Source of the DNA: a bacterium
GTDB taxonomy: Bacteria; DRYD01
Length of the DNA: 58,936 bases
Direction: 5' to 3'
Assembly (NCBI GenBank): GCA_039630415.1
Contig: JBCNVB010000004.1
Coordinates: forward strand, 1 to 58,936
Shown here: piece by piece, positions 1-10,004 of the stretch
Layout of the letters: each line of letters starts with the position of its first letter
How positions within the stretch are numbered: position 1 is the stretch's first letter
Made by a program: the position numbers and the translations under genes
Notes under the pieces: model-generated
What the model was told of the DNA's origin: nothing
The model's database searches: none
What the model saw: the letters and a program-made list of their open reading frames with translations, nothing else

Positions 1-267
1 CAATAGAAGAATTATATTCTATAAAAGTTCTTATAAAATACAAGAAAGGTTTTCCGGTGATTGTTATAAAAGATTTAAAGAAATTCTTTTCAGTGATTGA
101 GGTTATTTGTTGACTCGATGAGGTATAAAATCTCCTTTGGCCCTGTAACGACTGGAGGCGTGTTTGCCGAAGGATCTGGTGAGTGAGCCAGGTCAAAACG
201 CCGCGCTCCTCATCAGGTGAGGATGAAGAGATGGTGCCTGTTTAAGAGGGAAACATAAGAAAGGGTG
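1..267 (+). mobile_element. Group I intron (IA-like), 3' part, inserted after 23S rRNA position U2449 (E. coli numbering)
   Basis: Sequence upstream of AACAGGC (268) is not 23S domain V and ends in G267 (terminal omega-G). R-like CCUGUAACGACUG at 142-154. Extra stems between P7 and P3' (157-202). P8 UCAUC/GAUGA at 210-226. S-like AAGAGAUGGU at 226-235. Confidence 0.85.
3..186 (+). pseudogene. C-terminal fragment of intron-encoded LAGLIDADG homing endonuclease (I-SceI-like), 5'-truncated by window, frameshift near 105-111
   Basis: Frame 3 reads IEELYSIKVLIKYKKGFPVIVIKDLKKFFSVIEVIC* (stop 111-113). Frame 1 continues VDSMRYKISFGPVTT...* (stop 184-186). Together they resemble the I-SceI-family C-terminus (PIIYI...F...I....MxYKL). 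Confidence 0.65.
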
Positions 268-718
<451 letters not shown>

Positions 719-768
719 CCTTAACTCTTATCCCTTAAAATTTTCTACTAAATCTAAACTATTAAACT

Positions 769-3486
769 GTGGTGTCCCTACTACTCTCGATAATTAGAAA
801 TTTCTTACTATACACAATCACAATTAGTTTTTTTAGTCTGTTCAATTTTACTTACTCTCAAAGTATAAAATATCAAATACACGAAACTGATATCAATGGT
901 GATAGAGAATCAGATTTGATTTTCTTCATAGATTCTTTTAAACCACAAGAATGTTCTGCATCTTTTCACGAAGAAATATCATTGATGTATAGGTATAAAG
1001 ATTACCTATATCTGATAAATAAAAAAGGGAAATCGATAGCAAGATATAGGAATAATCGACTAGATGTTGACTTTGGAAAAAAATTTAAACGAGTTATAGA
1101 AAATATAAGGTCTAGAACCAAAATAAACATATCTGATAATCAGCTTGAAATACTCATAATAAACGATTATTTATATTTTCTAATTACCATACATGATTTT
1201 GATAAACTAGTAAAGGAAGTAATCTTGTGTAAACTAACAATGGACTTAGAATTTGTAAAGGACTTCTATGAACAAGGAGTTCTTAGACTGAATTTTAAAA
1301 AGCAAAAATATTACAAAGTTGGAAAAGAAGATGTCGTGGTAGACAAGAATGATGATGTGTATCTCTTTTTCATTACTAGAAAGAAGTTATCGGATGAGCA
1401 GAAGCTATTGAAGATTTTAAAGATATCTAGTGATGTTAAAAAGAATGAAGTTACCACGGAAGAAATAGATACGACAATAGAGTATCCATACGAATGTATT
1501 TTTAGCGCGAATAGTTTTGATCTTGATAATGATAGTATTATTTATTTTATAGATTACAAGAAAGAAAAAATACTGGGTGTGGATTTAGTAAATAAAATCA
1601 CAAAAAAAGTAGCTGATATAAAAAGACCTAGATGTTTGCTTTCTAGGTTTTACATAGATTACCAAATCAAAAGCATATTTTTAACCTATGTTGACTATAA
1701 TCAAACATACTTGTATGTGGAAAAAATATGTAAAGAATCCGGTAGTATACAACAAATTGTAGTTCATGAGATAAAAAAATATAACAACTTGAAAAATAAA
1801 GAAAGTATTGACATAGATGTACAAGAAATAACTTATTTGAATGGCTTGATTTACTTATTGTATAATGTGTACTATGATGGCGAATTATATTCCAACGTAC
1901 TTTTATTTGATATTAGGAATAAGATTAAAAGGGATATACCATTATCGAAATTACTATACTATAATTCAAAAGAAATGCAGGAAGATATATACATTCCTAA
2001 GAGGCTTTTAGTTGATAAACATGATATTTGGGTTTCAGGAGTGTATTTAAAGAAAAAAAACTTTAGACATAATTTTGTATCAAAAATTAATTTGAACGGA
2101 GGTTTACAGTTTAGGTTAATCACGAAAGATACTTTTGAGTATATTTTTAATACTTACCGTGATTTTGAGGTTAGAAAGATTATGAAATTGAATGATGGTT
2201 ATCTTGTTGGTATATCTAAGAATGGTATAGAACACTTGATACGTTTAAAGAGTGATTTTACTGTAGATTTTAATTTTGCCCAAAGAGGAATATTTACTCT
2301 TCCAACGATGCAGATTGCTCAATCTGTTATTCAGCGTCCAATTTATTATTACAACATAAAGTATGATAATGTTGAATTTCAGAATAATTTGTTATGGATA
2401 GATCAAGACCAAGGGGGGAATATATACATTCTGGGTTTTATTTCCAGCGATGAGTATCGTAAAGAATTCTATTATTTGCTAAAAATAGATCAAAAAGGAA
2501 ATATTGATAAAAATTTTAACAAAACTGGATTTATGATACTAGGTAATTTGGTCAATCAATATAAAAGAAAAGAAGTATCAGAAAATGAATATAAAATATT
2601 CCTAAATGGGCAGCAGTTATACATTATTAATATTTTGCGTTTCTACTCGTATAAGGGAACATTTAAAAAACTAAAATCAAAAAAGCTAAACAATGTAATG
2701 TTAATTTGTTGCAATACGGGAAAAATAATTCGTATCACTGGAATTGATAATACAAGTATTCCTTTCAGATATGACTTTGTTAGTGATACGCAGATGGTAT
2801 CAGATGGAATGTTTATTACTCTTGAGGATCGAAGTCGATATAGAACGTTTTTAGTTAAAATAGATAGTTCTGGAAAATTGGATAAAACCTTTGGTAAGGA
2901 TGGATGCATAGTGCTTGAAGGTATGTATCAATCAAAACTAATTTACAATCAAGATAATAATACTTTCCTAGTGACTTTTCACAATCCTAAGAAAAACCAT
3001 ATAATCCATGCGTTTAAAATGGATGAAAAAGGAAATATCGATAATACTATTGGAATAGTTACTGTGGATAAATTAGTTAGTATTTTCACAAGAATTATGA
3101 ATACAATTTTTACTTTCCTGTTTAAAATTCAAAGTATAAACCTTGTATATGTTACAGATGGTGTGCATATTTCTGATAGAAAATTTTTGTTATTTGTCCT
3201 TGCTTTAGAATACAAAGAAAACAAACACTGGATTGTGGAAATTGATTATTCTGAAGGGAAAAGGCGAATCAAGTATAGAGACCTAAGTAAATTAAAAGTG
3301 AAAATAGAGCAAATAGTGGAATCTACATATTCAATACAAGTAAAAGATATAGATATTAATCGTGTAATAATGTTTAAAGATGCTCATGAAAAACAAAAAA
3401 TTGTATTCAATCTGTCCTTTTCGGGTAAGAAGAATGATTCAAGTGGAATTTATTCAGAAGCAATACTCCAATTTTCTCTAAACTAG
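769..3486 (+). CDS. Large secreted beta-propeller protein with delta-60-like repeats
   Basis: 905 aa, hydrophobic N-terminus, recurring L...G.lDk.Fg..G units (DFNFAQRG, GNIDKNFNKTG, GKLDKTFGKDG, GNIDNTIG). Confidence 0.6.
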   Translation: MVSLLLSIIRNFLLYTITISFFSLFNFTYSQSIKYQIHETDINGDRESDLIFFIDSFKPQECSASFHEEISLMYRYKDYLYLINKKGKSIARYRNNRLDVDFGKKFKRVIENIRSRTKINISDNQLEILIINDYLYFLITIHDFDKLVKEVILCKLTMDLEFVKDFYEQGVLRLNFKKQKYYKVGKEDVVVDKNDDVYLFFITRKKLSDEQKLLKILKISSDVKKNEVTTEEIDTTIEYPYECIFSANSFDLDNDSIIYFIDYKKEKILGVDLVNKITKKVADIKRPRCLLSRFYIDYQIKSIFLTYVDYNQTYLYVEKICKESGSIQQIVVHEIKKYNNLKNKESIDIDVQEITYLNGLIYLLYNVYYDGELYSNVLLFDIRNKIKRDIPLSKLLYYNSKEMQEDIYIPKRLLVDKHDIWVSGVYLKKKNFRHNFVSKINLNGGLQFRLITKDTFEYIFNTYRDFEVRKIMKLNDGYLVGISKNGIEHLIRLKSDFTVDFNFAQRGIFTLPTMQIAQSVIQRPIYYYNIKYDNVEFQNNLLWIDQDQGGNIYILGFISSDEYRKEFYYLLKIDQKGNIDKNFNKTGFMILGNLVNQYKRKEVSENEYKIFLNGQQLYIINILRFYSYKGTFKKLKSKKLNNVMLICCNTGKIIRITGIDNTSIPFRYDFVSDTQMVSDGMFITLEDRSRYRTFLVKIDSSGKLDKTFGKDGCIVLEGMYQSKLIYNQDNNTFLVTFHNPKKNHIIHAFKMDEKGNIDNTIGIVTVDKLVSIFTRIMNTIFTFLFKIQSINLVYVTDGVHISDRKFLLFVLALEYKENKHWIVEIDYSEGKRRIKYRDLSKLKVKIEQIVESTYSIQVKDIDINRVIMFKDAHEKQKIVFNLSFSGKKNDSSGIYSEAILQFSLN

Positions 3487-4550
3487 TTTTTCATATTCAG
3501 TACCTTTAATAGCATTTCTTCTTCTTCATTTGTTTTAATGACATATACAGGGATTTTACTTTTACTACTTGAAATTAAAATTTCGTTGTTTTGATTTTTT
3601 TGCGGATCAATTTCTATTCCGAGTGGTTTTGTTTTTTCACATACCATGTTTCTTATTAAGCTACTGTTTTCTCCAATTCCTCCAGTAAACACTATTCCAT
3701 CAATGCTATCAAAGAGAATATAGTAAGAGCCTATATACTTTGCTATTCTATATACGAAAGCTTCCATTGCTAAAATGGAAAGGTCTTCATTAGATAAATA
3801 TCTTTTTTCGAGTTCTTTAAAGTTGTTTATTTTTGCTAAGGAAACCAAGCCGGAATTGAAGTAGAAATATTCTTCATTAATCTTGTGTGATTTTAATAGA
3901 TACAAAACTAAGCCTGGATCAATATCTCCTGGTCTGGTTTGCATTATTAATCCTTCTAATGGAGAAAATCCCATTGAAGTATCTATACTTTTACCCTCTT
4001 TTATAGCACATATACTGCATCCTGAGCCCAAATGAAGAATGATTAAATTTGGACTATTCTTGGATAAAAGTTCACACATTTTTCTCAAAACATAGGAGTA
4101 AGATATTCCGTGGAAACCATATTTTTTTAATCCTTGTTTGTAAAAATCAATATCAATTCCATATACTCTAGCATATTCTGGAATAGTTGAATGGAAGTCA
4201 GTATCAAAGACTGCATAATGAGTTTTTTCAGGAAAACGTTTCATTAGAAATTCAATACCTTTTAGCGATATTTTATTATGTAGCGGATTTATTTCAGCTA
4301 AGAATCTTAAAATATTTAATCCATTTTCATCTATTAAGAATGGACTTTTATAGTCCATACCGTGAACTACACGATGAATAATAACATCTGGTAAAATATT
4401 TATTCTACTAAGTAGATTTTGCAGGATTTGTTCAGTATTAGAAATGTTAAAATCTGATATAGTATATTTTTCAATTAAAGAAATATCTTGTTTATAAAGT
4501 GCGGCTTTAAGTGATGAACTACCGTAGTTTAAAACTAGATAAGTCCTCAT
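3483..4550 (-). CDS. ackA: Acetate kinase
   Basis: NYGSSSLK, HRVVHG, FDTDFH, YGFHGISY, HLGSG, FTGGIGENS, TNEE motifs. Confidence 0.97.
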   Translation of the reverse strand: MRTYLVLNYGSSSLKAALYKQDISLIEKYTISDFNISNTEQILQNLLSRINILPDVIIHRVVHGMDYKSPFLIDENGLNILRFLAEINPLHNKISLKGIEFLMKRFPEKTHYAVFDTDFHSTIPEYARVYGIDIDFYKQGLKKYGFHGISYSYVLRKMCELLSKNSPNLIILHLGSGCSICAIKEGKSIDTSMGFSPLEGLIMQTRPGDIDPGLVLYLLKSHKINEEYFYFNSGLVSLAKINNFKELEKRYLSNEDLSILAMEAFVYRIAKYIGSYYILFDSIDGIVFTGGIGENSSLIRNMVCEKTKPLGIEIDPQKNQNNEILISSSKSKIPVYVIKTNEEEEMLLKVLNMKN

Positions 4551-6933
4551 ACTCTGGTTTATCTACTCCATTTTCATAGGCAAATTTGAGAGCCTCTATT
4601 TGTATGTTTTTGAGGAAATCTATGTATTTGGCACTTTTATGCTTTACTTTTTGCACTCTTTTTATTATGTCAATTGCAATGCTAAACCTATCTATTTGGT
4701 TTATTATTGCTAATTGTAAGGGCGTTGTAATTCCTCCTCTACCTCTTAAGAAAGGTACTAAATGTTGAGCATCTATACCTATCTTTCTGTTTTCCCTATA
4801 ACCTCTTACATGTAAGTTACTATGATTTTTCCTTTTATATGTTAGTCTATGTATTAACCAAGGATATCCATGGAAATTGAATATTATTGGTTTATTTTCT
4901 GTAAAATACACAATAAAATCATCCTCTTTTAATCCGTCTGGATGCTCGTTTTCGGGAGATAATCTGAGTAGATTAACTATGTTAACAAACCTTATTTTAA
5001 TTTCTGGAAGCAGTTCTTTTATTATCTTATAAGCAAACATATTTTCTTTAGTGGGGATATCTCCACAGCTAACTAAAACGACATCTGGATCTTCTGGGTC
5101 ACTAAATGAATCAAATATTCCTAATCCTTTAATAAAGTGATTATAAGCTTGATCTATTGATAGGTACTGAGGATGTTGTTGTTTATCACATATGATAATA
5201 TTAATTCTGTTTGTTGTTTGGAGACAAAAATGTATACAGGTAAGTAAAGTGTTTGAATCGCAGGGGAAATAAACTCTAACTACTTGCGGCCATTTATCTA
5301 CTATTGAATTAATGAATCCTGGGTCTTGATGAGTAAATCCATTATGATCTTGTCTCCATACAACAGAGGTTAGTAGAATGTTAAGAGAACTAATAGGTTC
5401 TCTCCAGGGTACGTCAGAAGAAATGTCTAACCATTTACCGAATTGGTTAACCATGGATGAGATTATTGGAGCGAATCCTTCATAGGTGCTTAATATACCA
5501 TGTCTACCTGTTAGTATATATCCTTCAAGCCATCCTTCAACGGTATGCTCAGAAAGAATTTCCATAGTTCTTCCGAATGAATCTAAATATCCTTCATCTT
5601 CATCTTCTGGATTTTGTTTTAACATCCATACTTTGCCATACTGGAATACTTTTTGAAGTCTGTTTGATGCTGTTTCATCAGGTCCAAAAACTCTAAAATT
5701 ATTAGGATTATCTTTTATTACATCTGCTAAATAAATACCTAAGTTATAGGTATTTGAAAACTTTACTTTACCTGGGGATTCTATATCTATGCTATATTTC
5801 CTTATTTCTGGTAATTTTAGGGGTTTTCTTACTTTTCCTCCATTTGAGTAAATATTTTCTCCTATTTTTTTGGTAGGTATTAATTCTAGGAGATTTTGTT
5901 TAATTTTTCCGTGTTTGTCGAATATTTTATGTGGTTCATAGCTTCTAAGCCATTCTTCTAGTAGAGCCAATTCTTCTGGATTAGTTTTGCAGTTTGGGAG
6001 AGGTACTTGATGTGCTCTCCAGTATCCTTCAATGAAGTGATTTTTGAATTTGCGGGGAGCTGTCCAACCTTTTGGAACTCTAAGTATAATCATAGGGAAT
6101 TTAGCATAGAATGGTTTGTTTTTGCTTCTTGCTTCTTCCCAAATATTTTTTATTTTTTCTATGCAGTACTCCATTGTATTTGCCATTTTTTCGTGTATAT
6201 CTTCACTATAGTCTACAAGTATTGGTTCGTAGCCATATCCTTTAAACAAATTCAGTAACTCTTCGTCTTCTATTCGGGCAAAAATTGTAGGGTTATTTAT
6301 TTTATAGCCATTTAGTGAGAGAATTGGTAATACTGCACCATCAGTAACGGGATTTACGAATTTGTTTGAATGCCATGATGAAGCAAGTGGACCTGTTTCT
6401 GCTTCTCCATCTCCTACAATTGCAATTACGATTAAGTTAGGATTATCAAATATTGCTCCAAAGGAGTGGGATAGAGTGTAACCTAGTTCTCCACCTTCTT
6501 GTATGGTGCCTGGTAATTCTGGGGTACAGTGACTTCCTAATCCACCAGGAAATGAGAATGATTTGAATAGATTTCTTAACCCTTCTTCATCTTGACTGAA
6601 ATGAGGATAATATTTAGACAGAGTTCCTTCGAGATATAGTGGAGCTATGTAACCTGGTGCGCCATGACCAGGACCAACAACTATCATACAATCTATATCA
6701 TATTTCTTAACAACTCTGTTAGCATGAGTATAAACAAAACTGATACTTGGACTTGCACCCCAATGACCTAACAACCTGTCCTTTATATGTTCTGGCTTAA
6801 GAGGAATTTTCAAAAGAGGATTATCTTTCAAATATATCATTCCTACACTTAAATAGCAGCAAGCTTTAAAGAATTGGTCTATTAAAATTAGTTCGTTTTC
6901 TGTTAACTTCTGTGTCAAGTTTCTTCCCACCAT
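4519..6933 (-). CDS. xfp: Xylulose-5-phosphate/fructose-6-phosphate phosphoketolase
   Basis: RLLGHWG, EGGELGY, GDGEAETG (TPP binding), LNGYKI, QDHNGFTHQDPG. Confidence 0.97.
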   Translation of the reverse strand: MVGRNLTQKLTENELILIDQFFKACCYLSVGMIYLKDNPLLKIPLKPEHIKDRLLGHWGASPSISFVYTHANRVVKKYDIDCMIVVGPGHGAPGYIAPLYLEGTLSKYYPHFSQDEEGLRNLFKSFSFPGGLGSHCTPELPGTIQEGGELGYTLSHSFGAIFDNPNLIVIAIVGDGEAETGPLASSWHSNKFVNPVTDGAVLPILSLNGYKINNPTIFARIEDEELLNLFKGYGYEPILVDYSEDIHEKMANTMEYCIEKIKNIWEEARSKNKPFYAKFPMIILRVPKGWTAPRKFKNHFIEGYWRAHQVPLPNCKTNPEELALLEEWLRSYEPHKIFDKHGKIKQNLLELIPTKKIGENIYSNGGKVRKPLKLPEIRKYSIDIESPGKVKFSNTYNLGIYLADVIKDNPNNFRVFGPDETASNRLQKVFQYGKVWMLKQNPEDEDEGYLDSFGRTMEILSEHTVEGWLEGYILTGRHGILSTYEGFAPIISSMVNQFGKWLDISSDVPWREPISSLNILLTSVVWRQDHNGFTHQDPGFINSIVDKWPQVVRVYFPCDSNTLLTCIHFCLQTTNRINIIICDKQQHPQYLSIDQAYNHFIKGLGIFDSFSDPEDPDVVLVSCGDIPTKENMFAYKIIKELLPEIKIRFVNIVNLLRLSPENEHPDGLKEDDFIVYFTENKPIIFNFHGYPWLIHRLTYKRKNHSNLHVRGYRENRKIGIDAQHLVPFLRGRGGITTPLQLAIINQIDRFSIAIDIIKRVQKVKHKSAKYIDFLKNIQIEALKFAYENGVDKPEYEDLSSFKLR

Positions 6934-8375
6934 ACTTCCCTCCTTATATCCATTCTATATAAGTCAATGAAATTTAGTTGGTTAAACGTGTTATAAACAA
7001 TTGAGTTCAAAGAATCCAAAAAGAATAACTGAGTAAAAAGGTTGATTTCTTCATCATAGAATATTGTTTTTGCTATATTTGTTCTGTTGTCAATGTATCT
7101 AATTTTTTTGAAATATAAATCAATTATAAATGTTCTTTCATCTGTGTAGATACATTCGGATATTTTACCTTTTAATTTTTCGCGTTCTTTTTGATCGGAA
7201 CTGAATAATAGGGAATAACTTTTACCGGTTTTTAAATCTACTTTTCTTACCACAGAATACTCTATGTCTGCTACATAGATGAAGTTATTTTCTAGATGAA
7301 CGTTGTTTATGTTACCCCATATAGTTTGTTTCCATATACCGTCAGTTGGTTTACGAGTATACCTTGATTTTTGACCACTTACATTATATGAAAGTATATT
7401 TAATTCCTCATTTGTTGATACATATTGAGGGAAGTTATGTTTAAGTATATATATTGTATTGTGGTCCCATACGACAATATTTTTATGATTGATTCTTATT
7501 TTTTTTAAATCTAAATCTGTTAATTTTTCATTTACGGTACTCAGCTCAAATTCTTCTAAAATTTCTATTTCTTTCTTATCAAATGTATACTTATTTAAAA
7601 CTAACTTATTATCAATGGTTAGTAACACTAACAAAATATCATTGTGATTAATTGGAAGAAAATCTAATGATTTTACAAACCTATTAATTGTTATGCTTTT
7701 CTGTTTTTCTAGGGTTTGGTTTACAAAAAGGTACATACTAATTTTTGACTCTATACCAATATTTTTCAATCCAACAAGTAGGTATCCTTTTCTAAAGGGT
7801 TTTATCCTGATATCTTTAACTAAATGGCAAAAATTGGTAGGAATATTAAAATAGGTGTACTTATTCGGTACTGTATTTGTTACTTCTGGTCCTATTTGGT
7901 TATGGATATGAAAAACCATTTCGTTATTCTTTTTCAAAAATAGATAGGCTAAATCGTATCCGGTGGAAGGATCTGTATCAAATATTTTAAAATTACTTTC
8001 TCTATTTGATAATACCGAATTTTTTGATATTTGTAAGGAAAAAAAGTCTGTTGTTTGGTAAATAGGAAATGGCAAGTTATGAATTAAATATTCTTCATAA
8101 TGCTTTACTTTATGGGGAATTATACAGGCTATGGTTAATTTACTAGAGTCAATATCTTTGCCATAGTGTGAAAAAAAATGATCAATAAACTTAAAGATCA
8201 TTCTTGTGTTGGGAGAAGAATAGTTTAGAATTAAGATATCATTGTTGCTACAAATATCGTCAAAATTTACAGGAGTATTTAGAGGAATTAGTTTAACTTC
8301 TTTAATATGATTGACTTTTTTTTCTGGTTTATTTTCTGGTTTATTTTCTAGTTTATTTTCTAGTTTATTTTTCAT
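6915..8375 (-). CDS. Hypothetical protein with C-terminal NHL-like beta-propeller segment
   Basis: 486 aa ORF overlapping both neighbours. IYVADIEYSVVRKVDLKTG resembles an NHL repeat. Confidence 0.55.
   Translation of the reverse strand: MKNKLENKLENKPENKPEKKVNHIKEVKLIPLNTPVNFDDICSNNDILILNYSSPNTRMIFKFIDHFFSHYGKDIDSSKLTIACIIPHKVKHYEEYLIHNLPFPIYQTTDFFSLQISKNSVLSNRESNFKIFDTDPSTGYDLAYLFLKKNNEMVFHIHNQIGPEVTNTVPNKYTYFNIPTNFCHLVKDIRIKPFRKGYLLVGLKNIGIESKISMYLFVNQTLEKQKSITINRFVKSLDFLPINHNDILLVLLTIDNKLVLNKYTFDKKEIEILEEFELSTVNEKLTDLDLKKIRINHKNIVVWDHNTIYILKHNFPQYVSTNEELNILSYNVSGQKSRYTRKPTDGIWKQTIWGNINNVHLENNFIYVADIEYSVVRKVDLKTGKSYSLLFSSDQKEREKLKGKISECIYTDERTFIIDLYFKKIRYIDNRTNIAKTIFYDEEINLFTQLFFLDSLNSIVYNTFNQLNFIDLYRMDIRREVWWEET
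8320..8370. repeat. 12-bp tandem repeat (about 4 copies) encoding N-terminal NKLE/NKPE units
   Basis: TTTTCTGGTTTA x2 then TTTTCTAGTTTA x2 on the + strand. Confidence 0.85.
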
Positions 8376-9222
8376 AAAACTTTTCTATCCATCTTTGTAA
8401 AATATTTTTATTGCCTATGAGGGTAAATTTACTATCTGACTTTTTTATGCTAATAGATTGTTGAGGTTCAAGAATAAGTTTATCTTGACCATCTGTTAAA
8501 ACAATAGCATTTTTCTTATCTTTATTTGTTACCAATATATTTTGGTCCTTAATTAGTTGTGGTCTGTATTTTAATGAATGAGGAGCAATGAAAGATATAC
8601 CTATTAAATCCTCGAACTTTGTATCTATGTATATTCCATTTATGGATAAGAAATAACCTGTAGAACCAAAAGTAGTAAAGACTATTATCCCGTCACATAA
8701 TTCCTCTAGATTAACTGAATTGACAGAATAGGATAGCTTTATTGTCTTATAATGAATGTAAGGCTTTATAACTACATCCCCTACAAAATAGTGATTATCA
8801 TTAACTAACCAGAAAAATCCTTCTACAAGATTATCATTTTGATAATCTGTTATTACCATTTCTAATAAGTCAATTTCATCATTTAAGAATTGATCTATAA
8901 GATGCTTAGGGTAAAAGCAATAAAAGCCTTTGTTACCAAAGTTGAATGAAATGGTATATATATTAGATTTTTTCATGAACTCTGCTGTAATGGAAAGTGA
9001 GGAAAATAAACTACCATCTCCGCCAAGATTTATTAGCAAAATGTCATCAGTTTCATCAATCTTACCAACACTATCTTTAAAGATAGATATTTCTCTTCTA
9101 CTTGTTATATCGATAGGTATGAGACACTTATATTTGCTCTTTATCTTTCCATAAAAAGATTTTACAACAGAAAAATCAACGTTTATGGAATTGTAAAATA
9201 TGATTATTCTATCAATTTTCAT
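8365..9222 (-). CDS. nadK: NAD kinase (divergent)
   Basis: LGGDGS, FGNKGF, DGIIVFTTFGSTGYFLS, DGQ motifs. Confidence 0.85.
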   Translation of the reverse strand: MKIDRIIIFYNSINVDFSVVKSFYGKIKSKYKCLIPIDITSRREISIFKDSVGKIDETDDILLINLGGDGSLFSSLSITAEFMKKSNIYTISFNFGNKGFYCFYPKHLIDQFLNDEIDLLEMVITDYQNDNLVEGFFWLVNDNHYFVGDVVIKPYIHYKTIKLSYSVNSVNLEELCDGIIVFTTFGSTGYFLSINGIYIDTKFEDLIGISFIAPHSLKYRPQLIKDQNILVTNKDKKNAIVLTDGQDKLILEPQQSISIKKSDSKFTLIGNKNILQRWIEKFYEK

Positions 9223-9242
9223 AGTTTCTATATGAGCAGATA

Positions 9243-10004
9243 TTACATGACCTTTAATGGTATAAGATCAAAGAGTGTAGATGGAATATATCTACATTCA
9301 GAATTTAGAGTAGTGATTTTTAGTATAAAATTGTTTTCTATACTAGACAATAGTTCTTCATCAATTTTTGAAAACAAATAGTTCATTTTTATATTGGATT
9401 GAATTATAAATTTTGTGTTAGAGATTTTTATCGCTGTTCCAATAACTTTTTGGTTATTATAGGTTTTTTCAAAACTATAAATATTCTCAAAACAATCGAA
9501 ATTAATATATTTTTTTTGACTTTTGTTTATTTGTATATCTTGTTTTTGTGCATCTTTAAGTGTTGTTATTAGGGGAGATATTGAGTCCCATAGTAAATCG
9601 CTAATAAAAGAGTGTATTGATTCGATAAGATTAGTTCTATAGTTAACATTTAGCTTATCTAGAATGTTCAGGGAAGAAACCATACAAAAAGTTAGATCCT
9701 TTTTAGGGTAGTGAAACACTGCTTTCCCACCAGTTATTCTTCTTACAAAAAACCACTTGTTAAATTCTTTCTTTATTTCTTCTGGAATCATTTTTTGAAA
9801 ATATCCTAGGGTAATGGTATGGTTTGAAAATGTGTAGAATCTGCCTATTACTGATTCATCTGGATTTGAAACCAATTTTTCAAAGTTTTCAAATATATAT
9901 CCATCTATTTTCATATTCCAGAATCCGGTATAGCTATTTCTCTTAATTAATATGAAATCCAGTTTATTGTTTGTTTTAGTAGAGGGTAACGTAAGCTTCT
10001 TCAT
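9243..10004 (-). CDS. Lipoate-protein ligase/octanoyltransferase family protein (LplA/LipM-like)
   Basis: NMKID, TITLGYFQ, RRITGGKAVFH, KVIGTA motifs. Confidence 0.85.
   Translation of the reverse strand: MKKLTLPSTKTNNKLDFILIKRNSYTGFWNMKIDGYIFENFEKLVSNPDESVIGRFYTFSNHTITLGYFQKMIPEEIKKEFNKWFFVRRITGGKAVFHYPKKDLTFCMVSSLNILDKLNVNYRTNLIESIHSFISDLLWDSISPLITTLKDAQKQDIQINKSQKKYINFDCFENIYSFEKTYNNQKVIGTAIKISNTKFIIQSNIKMNYLFSKIDEELLSSIENNFILKITTLNSECRYIPSTLFDLIPLKVM

Follow-up and report, generated by a model that had tools for sequence, protein, structure and literature searches.

The window analysed here, i.e., the 58,936 nucleotides of contig JBCNVB010000004.1 (bacterial assembly GCA_039630415.1, forward strand), begins inside an intron, within the endonuclease gene of this element, and enters at base 268 the 3′ end of a 23S rRNA gene, whose first letters are AACAGG. 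Bases 268–718 are aligned by the bacterial LSU rRNA model of Rfam (LSU_rRNA_bacteria, RF02541) with a score of 448.8 bits over model positions 2476–2925, and in a BLAST comparison of bases 268–440 with E. coli genomes the first aligned record base is 458779 which, the annotated 23S gene occupying 456330–459233, corresponds to E. coli position 2450 (458779 − 456330 + 1). Since base 268 is the counterpart of position 2450, bases 1–267 constitute an insertion after U2449; thus both the resumption of the 23S sequence at A2450 behind a terminal G (base 267) and the insertion site L2449, which the first-pass annotation had read directly from the letters, are borne out by the alignment and by the E. 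coli numbering.

Very probably, these 267 bases represent the final third of a mobile group IA intron, endowed with the helices P7.1 and P7.2 and inserted in the peptidyl-transferase ring of the 23S rRNA; the parts recognized are collected in the table below. The source genome is an 89%-complete bin of 31 contigs and 1.40 Mb having a single 23S 3′ end, and a blastn search of the 31 contigs with four relatives' complete 23S genes yielded no 23S piece outside this contig, the missing 5′ half of the gene included. The 5′ exon, P1, P2, the 5′ strands of P3–P6 and most of the endonuclease are accordingly absent from the assembly, and introns of this type also account for the break of the rRNA operon in it.

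Table. Features of the intron and of its 3′ exon at the beginning of the window
Feature	Position	Strand	Remarks
LAGLIDADG_2 (I-SceI family) endonuclease gene tail, frame 3	3–113	+	TGA at 111–113; 5′ side cut by the contig start
Conserved endonuclease C-terminal peptide VDSMRYKISFGPVTTGGV, frame 1	109–186	+	Stop at 184–186; overlaps P6a′, P6′, J6/7, P7 and P7.1
P6a 3′ strand (132–141, CUCCUUUGGC) and P6 3′ strand (142–144)	132–144	+	5′ partners in the missing 5′ half
Classical R element (J6/7 and P7 5′ strand at 145–156), GUAACGACUGGAG	143–157	+	Columns 850–856 of alignment A2 nearly or fully invariant in 18 sequences
P7.1 hairpin, GGC/GCC	157–168	+	No non-standard pairs in R1 alignment
P7.2 hairpin, GAUCUGG/CCAGGUC	173–194	+	No non-standard pairs (R1); compensating changes relative to G004
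P3 3′ strand, GCCGCG	200–205	+	Partner CGCGGC in the missing 5′ half
P8 hairpin, UCCUCA/UGAGGA, 5-nt loop	207–223	+	Covariation among relatives
S element: J8/7 (UGAAGAGA) and P7 3′ strand	224–239	+	A2 and R1 alignments
Poorly conserved 3′ tail, with weak candidate P9 (UGUUU/AAACA) at 239–255	239–266	+	Non-standard pairs in R1 alignment
Terminal intron G (omega-G)	267	+	3′ splice site between 267 and 268; G in 18/18 aligned introns
23S rRNA 3′ exon	268–718	+	E. coli 2450 to the 3′ end, no other insertion; GC 0.603

Full copies in relatives and fold of the intron

The missing part of the element can be appreciated from its relatives. When 40 related genomes were searched at the DNA level and 23S loci from them were mapped against the intron-less 23S gene of genome G030, full insertions of 841 and 869 nt came to light at the same junction in G004, belonging to the same genus as the source, and in G009, belonging to the same family. 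In both, the 5′ exon ends with GGGGAT, the intron begins with AAC and ends with GGTG, and the 3′ exon resumes with AACAGG; written more extensively, the relatives have ...CCGGGGAT as the end of the 5′ exon, AAC(T/A)AACAGTTGTCCC ... AAAGGTG as the two ends of the intron and AACAGGCTTG as the beginning of the 3′ exon. Furthermore, in the full copies the GUU preceding the GUCCC of the intron, which pairs with the exon end in P1, can pair with AAC, the first bases of the 3′ exon, to form P10. The occurrence of the insertion varies among close relatives: within the genus it is present in the source genome and in G004 and not in G003, and within the sister genus of the same family it is present in G009 and not in G008.

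The fold, comprising P1, P2, P3, P4, P5, P6/P6a, P7, P7.1, P7.2, P8 and P9, was drawn by hand from G004, and 54 pairs of P1–P8 were scored in an alignment of 18 L2449 introns (A2). The fraction of paired cells amounts to 92.3%, as opposed to 78.7% after shuffling of the columns (none of 500 shuffles being as high) and to 39–47% when the 3′ partners are slid out of register. Changes on both sides of the pair occur in 33 of the 54 pairs, the carriers of this covariation being P2, P3, P4, P5, P6a and P8; indeed, they are found in 8 of the 13 pairs of P6/P6a (92.8% of cells paired), in half of the six pairs of P3 (95.6% paired) and in five of the six pairs of P8. P1 is invariant save for one G-C/G-U change and therefore constitutes neutral evidence, and P7.2 also covaries among the relatives. 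The P3/P7 pseudoknot core is supported by covariation. The window contains P7, P7.1, P7.2 and P8 completely, whereas of P6a, P6 and P3 it has the 3′ strand. The R and P7 elements, the extra stems, P8 and the S-like element suspected upstream of the exon have all been located. Within the R element, J6/7 is GUA (145–147) and the 5′ strand of P7 reads A148, C149 (bulged), G150, A151, C152, U153 and G154; in the relatives the guanosine-binding pair of P7 is, in 17 cases out of 17, a G-C pair accompanied by the bulged C.

The splice sites are equally characteristic. A U·G pair is present at the 5′ splice site of all 15 full copies, in which the exon end GGGAU faces GUCC(C/U) of the intron, and G is the last intron base of all 18 aligned sequences, that of the window being G267 followed by AACAGG. 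Together with the covarying P1–P8 fold, these features support the assignment to group I made at first sight. The assignment to the IA type is likewise supported by P7.1 and P7.2, which follow P7 and precede the 3′ strand of P3, an arrangement that Michel and Westhof are said to have indicated in 1990 as the mark of this subgroup. The definition of subgroup IA by the extra P7.1/P7.2 helices is echoed in PMC1995217.

Endonuclease gene and proposed pathway

In the full copies the P6a loop houses the endonuclease gene. The AAGGAG of this gene, which resembles a Shine–Dalgarno sequence, sits in the 5′ strand of P6a in the relatives, and according to the G004-based fold the end of the gene passes through P6a′, P6′, J6/7 and P7 into P7.1. 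The open reading frames of two relatives (P0002, from G004, and P0001) encode 204–211 amino acids and match the Pfam family LAGLIDADG_2 (PF03161) with E values of 5.8e-40 and 6.9e-45. Among the solved structures, the best matches of P0002 are 6x1j (E 2.7e-13) and several chains of I-SceI (E 3e-8 to 1e-7, residues 12–194), and both LAGLIDADG motifs can be aligned between the G004 protein and I-SceI (LLGDAYL with ILGDAYI and WFMDDG with WFMDDG). I-SceI is nevertheless a distant relative, having 235 amino acids compared to about 205 here, the other mitochondrial homologue 6x1j being closer. A protein search returned 278 relatives of the endonuclease at E ≤ 1e-10, nearly all of them unnamed metagenomic proteins or entries called “hypothetical protein.” As far as the family is concerned, the suggestion of an I-SceI-like enzyme is supported by the full reading frames of the relatives.

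The window itself contains approximately 36 + 18 residues of this protein, in two different frames. The frame-3 tail aligns to residues 149–169 of P0002 (BLASTP, E 1e-5), and the frame-1 peptide, whose portion overlapping the R element is MRYKISFGPVTTGGV, is identical to residues 187–204 at 15 of 18 positions (BLASTP, E 2e-10). As assembled, the reading frame is interrupted by a −2 frameshift, which lies approximately 17 codons short of where the endonuclease normally ends and appears in the A2 alignment as a 2-nt gap at about window base 107. Of the AT-rich reading frame running into the R element described in the first-pass annotation, the AT-richness is confirmed (GC 0.256 in bases 1–117), whereas the frame is split here and continues undivided into R in the relatives G004 and G009. 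Likewise, the LAGLIDADG_2 profile recognizes the relatives' full reading frames but not the window's own fragments of 36 and 29 amino acids, short pieces without a Pfam match that were placed only by their alignment to P0002 at the E values just given. Furthermore, with nothing more than a frameshifted tail at hand, the idea that this DNA might itself be a source of a meganuclease had to be abandoned in favor of the relatives, which are the source. The endonuclease of the window is either decaying or mis-assembled.

On the basis of the relatives' full copies, the following pathway can be proposed. The intron would be transcribed inside the pre-23S rRNA, where the exon end GGGAU would pair with the intron guide GUCCC to form P1 and a free guanosine bound in P7 would attack after U2449; the terminal G (base 267 of the window) would then enter the same pocket and the joining of the exons would restore GGGGAU-AACAGG. 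The I-SceI-family endonuclease of about 205 amino acids and two LAGLIDADG motifs, encoded in the P6a loop of the full copies, would, by analogy with I-SceI, cut the intron-less 23S genes at the same site, so that repair would copy the intron into them, the putative target of the enzyme being the intron-less sequence CCGGGGATAACAGGCTTGTGG. The missing 5′ part of the source locus should consist of an exon ending with ...CCGGGGAU, followed by AAC..GUUGUCCC (P1/P10), P2, P3–P6 and, inside P6a, an ATG preceded by AAGGAG.

Peculiarities of the window copy

In addition to the frameshift, the window copy departs from its relatives at the 3′ strand of P7, which reads UGGUGCCU instead of the UAGUCU or UAGUCA of the 17 other copies and is the only non-consensus strand among the 18 sequences. 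The bases concerned are U232, G233, G234, U235, G236, C237, C238 and U239, of which G236 and C237 are placed by Infernal as an insertion. Read without gaps, this strand would oppose G to G at the guanosine-binding pair, and the destruction of the P7 G-C pair had initially been considered; this interpretation was withdrawn, the difference being explained by the 2-nt insertion. Indeed, by bulging G236 and C237 the Infernal alignment preserves G150–C238 and retains all six P7 pairs, with a single U-A pair changed to U·G. Two further differences were noted: in place of the GAAA-capped P9 that most relatives possess, the window has a weak alternative, and in the minimum free energy fold of the isolated 3′ domain P7 is formed in five of seven relatives and not in the window. 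On the other hand, P7.1, P7.2 and P8 are intact and display compensating changes with respect to G004, and the fold has therefore been under selection. Because the 23S gene is essential and apparently present in single copy, the ribozyme of the window most likely still works.

An alternative, possible yet on the whole unlikely, is that the intron is real and its two indels, and perhaps its odd 3′ tail as well, are errors of assembly or consensus at the end of a contig; in the true copy the endonuclease would be intact and P7 canonical. Both anomalies are in fact 2-nt indels among the first 240 bases of the contig, whose break falls in a repeat-like element, the 23S genes of the relatives contain a paralogous intron with nearly identical core segments, a condition that invites tangles in the assembly graph, and the incomplete, fragmented nature of the bin has been mentioned above. 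However, no donor was found for the divergent stretch 225–267, for which the chimera test gave only chance-level matches in the genome and in all the fetched loci. In four public sequencing runs (X1, X2, X8 and X21), each containing less than 40% of the sampled words of the genome, the depth is zero on bases 1–117 and 164–264, and only sequences of relatives were recovered, such as a G004-like intron piece at 118–163; RNA reads gave no coverage of the source organism. The window intron sequence also had no match in two exact-pattern scans of metagenome contigs.

Still less probable is that the sequence is correct and belongs to a decaying element, in which the endonuclease is dead and the ribozyme impaired by the 2-nt insertion beside the guanosine-binding pair and by the loss of the GAAA-capped P9, the resulting 23S rRNA being poor, non-functional or dependent on a helper. 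The −2 frameshift that separates frame 3 (residues 149–169 of the homologue) from frame 1 (residues 187–204), the uniqueness of the P7 3′ strand and the failure of P7 to appear in the minimum free energy fold all point in this direction, and the loss of the endonuclease after fixation is, according to PMC6279837, what is expected in the life cycle of the omega intron. Against decay stand the intact helices with their compensating changes, which indicate that selection acted on the fold until recently, the possibility of retaining all six P7 pairs with the G236/C237 bulge, and a covariance score (92 bits, see below) falling within the range of the relatives. Moreover, the assembly has a single 23S 3′ end, and an essential gene present only once would not be expected to keep a dead ribozyme.

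As to the covariance models, the check recommended by the first-pass annotation gave a divided answer. The general group I model of Rfam (Intron_gpI, RF00028) had no match on bases 1–330 of the window at E ≤ 10 and, genome-wide, nothing above the cut-off, the best matches (15 bits) being located elsewhere. The same model did not match at E ≤ 1 the full copies present in loci L023 and L024, and none of the four insertions with an endonuclease in L024 was recognized by it; it is therefore insensitive to introns split by a reading frame, and its silence on the window says little. By contrast, a family-specific model (R1), for which 14 L2449 introns, the window excluded, supplied their 3′ domains, matches bases 129–273 with 92.2 bits (Infernal, E about 2e-20 to 2e-22), compared to 97 bits for a CPR copy absent from the model set (L039) and to 94–106 bits for paralogous introns at another 23S site in G004 and G008. 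The notion that the element does not belong to group I at all, being instead an RNase III-processed intervening sequence, a group II intron, an archaeal bulge-helix-bulge intron or an insertion element, could appeal to the missing RF00028 match and is nonetheless extremely improbable in view of the P1–P8 architecture with its P3/P7 pseudoknot backed by covariation, the U·G pair at 15 of 15 5′ splice sites, the terminal G in 18 of 18 introns, the classical R and S sequences, the LAGLIDADG endonuclease in a peripheral loop and the lack of a match of the other Rfam families in this region.

Distribution, known counterparts and hosts

rRNA GC content is linked to growth temperature, and since the GC content of the 23S exon (60.3%) is far above that of the rest of the window (31.5%), the sequence is consistent with the source organism being a thermophile, as the first-pass annotation had supposed. 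Two metagenomic runs from hot springs (X1 and X2) yielded one contig each with a G004-like piece of the intron; these contigs speak for the habitat of the relatives and not directly for that of the source organism.

A scan based on the endonuclease alignment and covering one genome per prokaryote species identified 21 endonuclease loci, two of which are again the sources of the queries; since two peptide patterns were used, this number is a lower bound. Comparison by blastn with an intron-less reference, combined with motif checks, indicated that 20 of these loci are interrupted at the 23S position equivalent to 2449, the exception being L048, in which an endonuclease with 34% identity lies in an insertion located farther downstream. 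The labels of the hosts include a Hydrogenobacter sp., three Thermocrinis and an Aquificaceae MAG (Aquificota), Pyrinomonas methylaliphatogenes K22 (Acidobacteriota) and an Armatimonadota MAG, and about ten of the 21 loci have a CPR host by label, L037 and L039–L047 carrying the same intron at L2449. One MAG labelled Gammaproteobacteria has an intron that is nearly identical to a Patescibacteria one.

The yeast mitochondrial omega intron (rnl, mL2449), which encodes I-SceI, sits at this very position 2449 of the LSU rRNA, and the 23S genes of the hosts of full-length copies share GGGATAACAGG, the exon junction, which is also the core of the site recognized by I-SceI. The likeness between the two systems consists therefore in the insertion point and in the LAGLIDADG_2 endonuclease with its two alignable catalytic motifs, whereas the host is here bacterial and apparently thermophilic; the comparison concerns the site and the protein. 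Through this element the omega/I-SceI system, a textbook case from mitochondria, is connected with free-living bacteria. For the fungal mitochondrial rnl introns at mL2449, which host rps3 and/or LAGLIDADG genes, the label “group IA type” is used in PMC6279837, so that both the site and the subgroup are shared with the element described here, in which P7.1 and P7.2 are present. The fungal introns differ in that they often carry rps3, whereas in the bacterial copies the endonuclease gene is the sole passenger, inserted in P6a, a helix in which its ribosome-binding site is also paired.

Bacterial 23S genes are already known to harbor group I introns that encode LAGLIDADG endonucleases, and the window element is a further example of them. 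The bacterial LSU introns with endonuclease genes listed in Table 1 of PMC1995217 are found only at L1917, L1931, L1951 and L2593, in agreement with the first-pass annotation, which placed them mainly at about 1917–1951 and 2593, and the proteins given in that table are single-motif LAGLIDADG enzymes of 143–189 amino acids. As far as the accessible text of the same article goes, the introns of Thermotoga, Coxiella, Simkania, Synechococcus and Thermosynechococcus resemble the window type in being of the self-splicing type, in residing in 23S domain IV/V, in having reading frames that extend into the ribozyme core, in the frequency of thermophilic hosts and in the possible presence of several introns per gene; they differ in their single-motif proteins, as opposed to an L2449 intron with a two-motif enzyme of the I-SceI type. 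In many 23S genes of CPR bacteria, group I introns, distributed over nine sites and accompanied by LAGLIDADG_1/_2 enzymes whose lengths are about 180 and 210 amino acids, are described by Tsurumaki et al. 2024 (PMC11270868), where the sites 23IS9, 10, 11, 13 and 14 are called new for bacteria and 23IS9–11 are placed between 1952 and 2593; L2449 may be one of the latter three. L2449 introns are indeed present in the CPR loci listed above, whereas the source organism and the Aquificota, Acidobacteriota and Armatimonadota hosts are not CPR. In the literature searched, subscription journals being outside its scope, no description was found of an I-SceI-type L2449 element in non-CPR bacteria; the articles on L2449 group I introns concern, by title and abstract, eukaryotic nuclear rDNA and none of them bacteria, the accessible texts on Thermocrinis yielded no mention of rRNA introns, and the matches listed for an intron at L2509–L2512 were all unrelated.

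Taken together, these data suggest, albeit tentatively and with somewhat less than even confidence, that a single ribozyme/endonuclease lineage, a bacterial counterpart of omega/I-SceI, is moving between unrelated bacteria, many of which are labelled as hot-spring organisms (Aquificota, Acidobacteriota, Armatimonadota, the low-GC lineage of the source and CPR), and that, by a jump within the 23S gene, it may have reached one new site at least, located after U2511, where its endonuclease has diverged. Were this the case, nature would offer enzymes of the I-SceI type whose hosts bear thermophile labels, as well as a pair of related enzymes that differ naturally in their targets. The full-length copies from which I-SceI-like meganucleases of heat-loving hosts could come are those of G004, G009 and the loci labelled Hydrogenobacter, Thermocrinis and Pyrinomonas.

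Two additional observations concern this part of the gene. Up to four endonuclease-bearing insertions surround the peptidyl-transferase centre in one 23S gene, that of G004. In run X8, sequences originating from relatives display an intron-less 2449 junction together with the beginning of an L2511 intron.

A paralogous intron after position 2511

The 23S genes of the relatives of the window's genome, G004 and G003 in the same genus and G008 in a sister genus of the same family, span 3.7-6.1 kb and carry four (G004), one (G003) and three (G008) insertions with an endonuclease ORF. Two of the four in G004 lie near E. coli positions ~1917-1951, their ORFs (154 and 189 aa) being of the single-motif LAGLIDADG kind, and the remaining two are found one each at 2449 and 2511.

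The insertion after U2511, present in G004 and G008 with the junctions GTCGGCT|CAGATTTGGGCC...AACGTG|CATCGC, is a second intron, paralogous to that at L2449; the two share the same ribozyme core, the L2511 introns scoring 94-106 bits with model R1 (a covariance model of the 3' domains of 14 L2449 introns, the window being left out), and the ORF belongs to LAGLIDADG_2 (E 3.9e-42), its product being 33% identical to the L2449 endonuclease (E 4e-32). The L2511 intron looks like the L2449 lineage transferred to a new site, with its endonuclease retargeted. A literature search for an intron at L2509-L2512 gave no paper on this site among the matches listed.

In five CPR 23S loci (L039, L043, L046, L047 and L048), R1 picks out several additional 3' domains of this ribozyme type in each locus, with as many as five to seven matches at E < 0.01; therefore, many 23S sites in CPR bacteria hold this ribozyme family.

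Overlap of the endonuclease gene and the ribozyme core

In the G004 intron, the AAGGAG ribosome-binding sequence of the endonuclease is one strand of helix P6a, and the final ~18 codons of the gene also encode P6a', P6', J6/7, P7 and P7.1, an arrangement which suggests that translation of the endonuclease and folding of the ribozyme are mutually exclusive. The conserved endonuclease peptide D/G-P-V-T-T-G is accounted for by this double use of the last codons as ribozyme strands.

Coordinates of introns, overlaps and genes
Feature	Location	Strand	Remark
23S gene, G004	L024 (G004:C3) 507-6592
23S gene, G008	L025 (G008:C7) 490-5771
23S gene, G003	L026 (G003:C22) 5907-9625
L2511 intron, G004	L024, local 23S 4990-5819
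L2511 intron, G008	L025, local 4117-4971
Gene/ribozyme overlap, G004 intron	L028 2379-2510 and 3079-3130
Gene/ribozyme overlap, window	window 132-162
905-aa ORF	window 769-3486	+	starts 50 bases past 23S end; no Pfam match
Acetate kinase	window 3483-4550	minus	next after 905-aa ORF
Phosphoketolase	window 4519-6933	minus	after acetate kinase

The rRNA operon of the window's genome

Directly past the splice site, the helix GGCGCgCC contains, at window 284, one additional G with respect to the Rfam consensus, and this G is absent from related hot-spring sequences (116/116 RNA reads and 2 contigs). No 5S rRNA was found within 6 kb after the 23S in the window. The last 60 bases of another contig of the same genome bin (C3) are GC-rich and read like the 5' third of 16S rRNA (...ACGGGGGGCAGCAGTGGGGAAT...), inside which the contig stops, so that the rRNA operon of this bin has two or more breaks.
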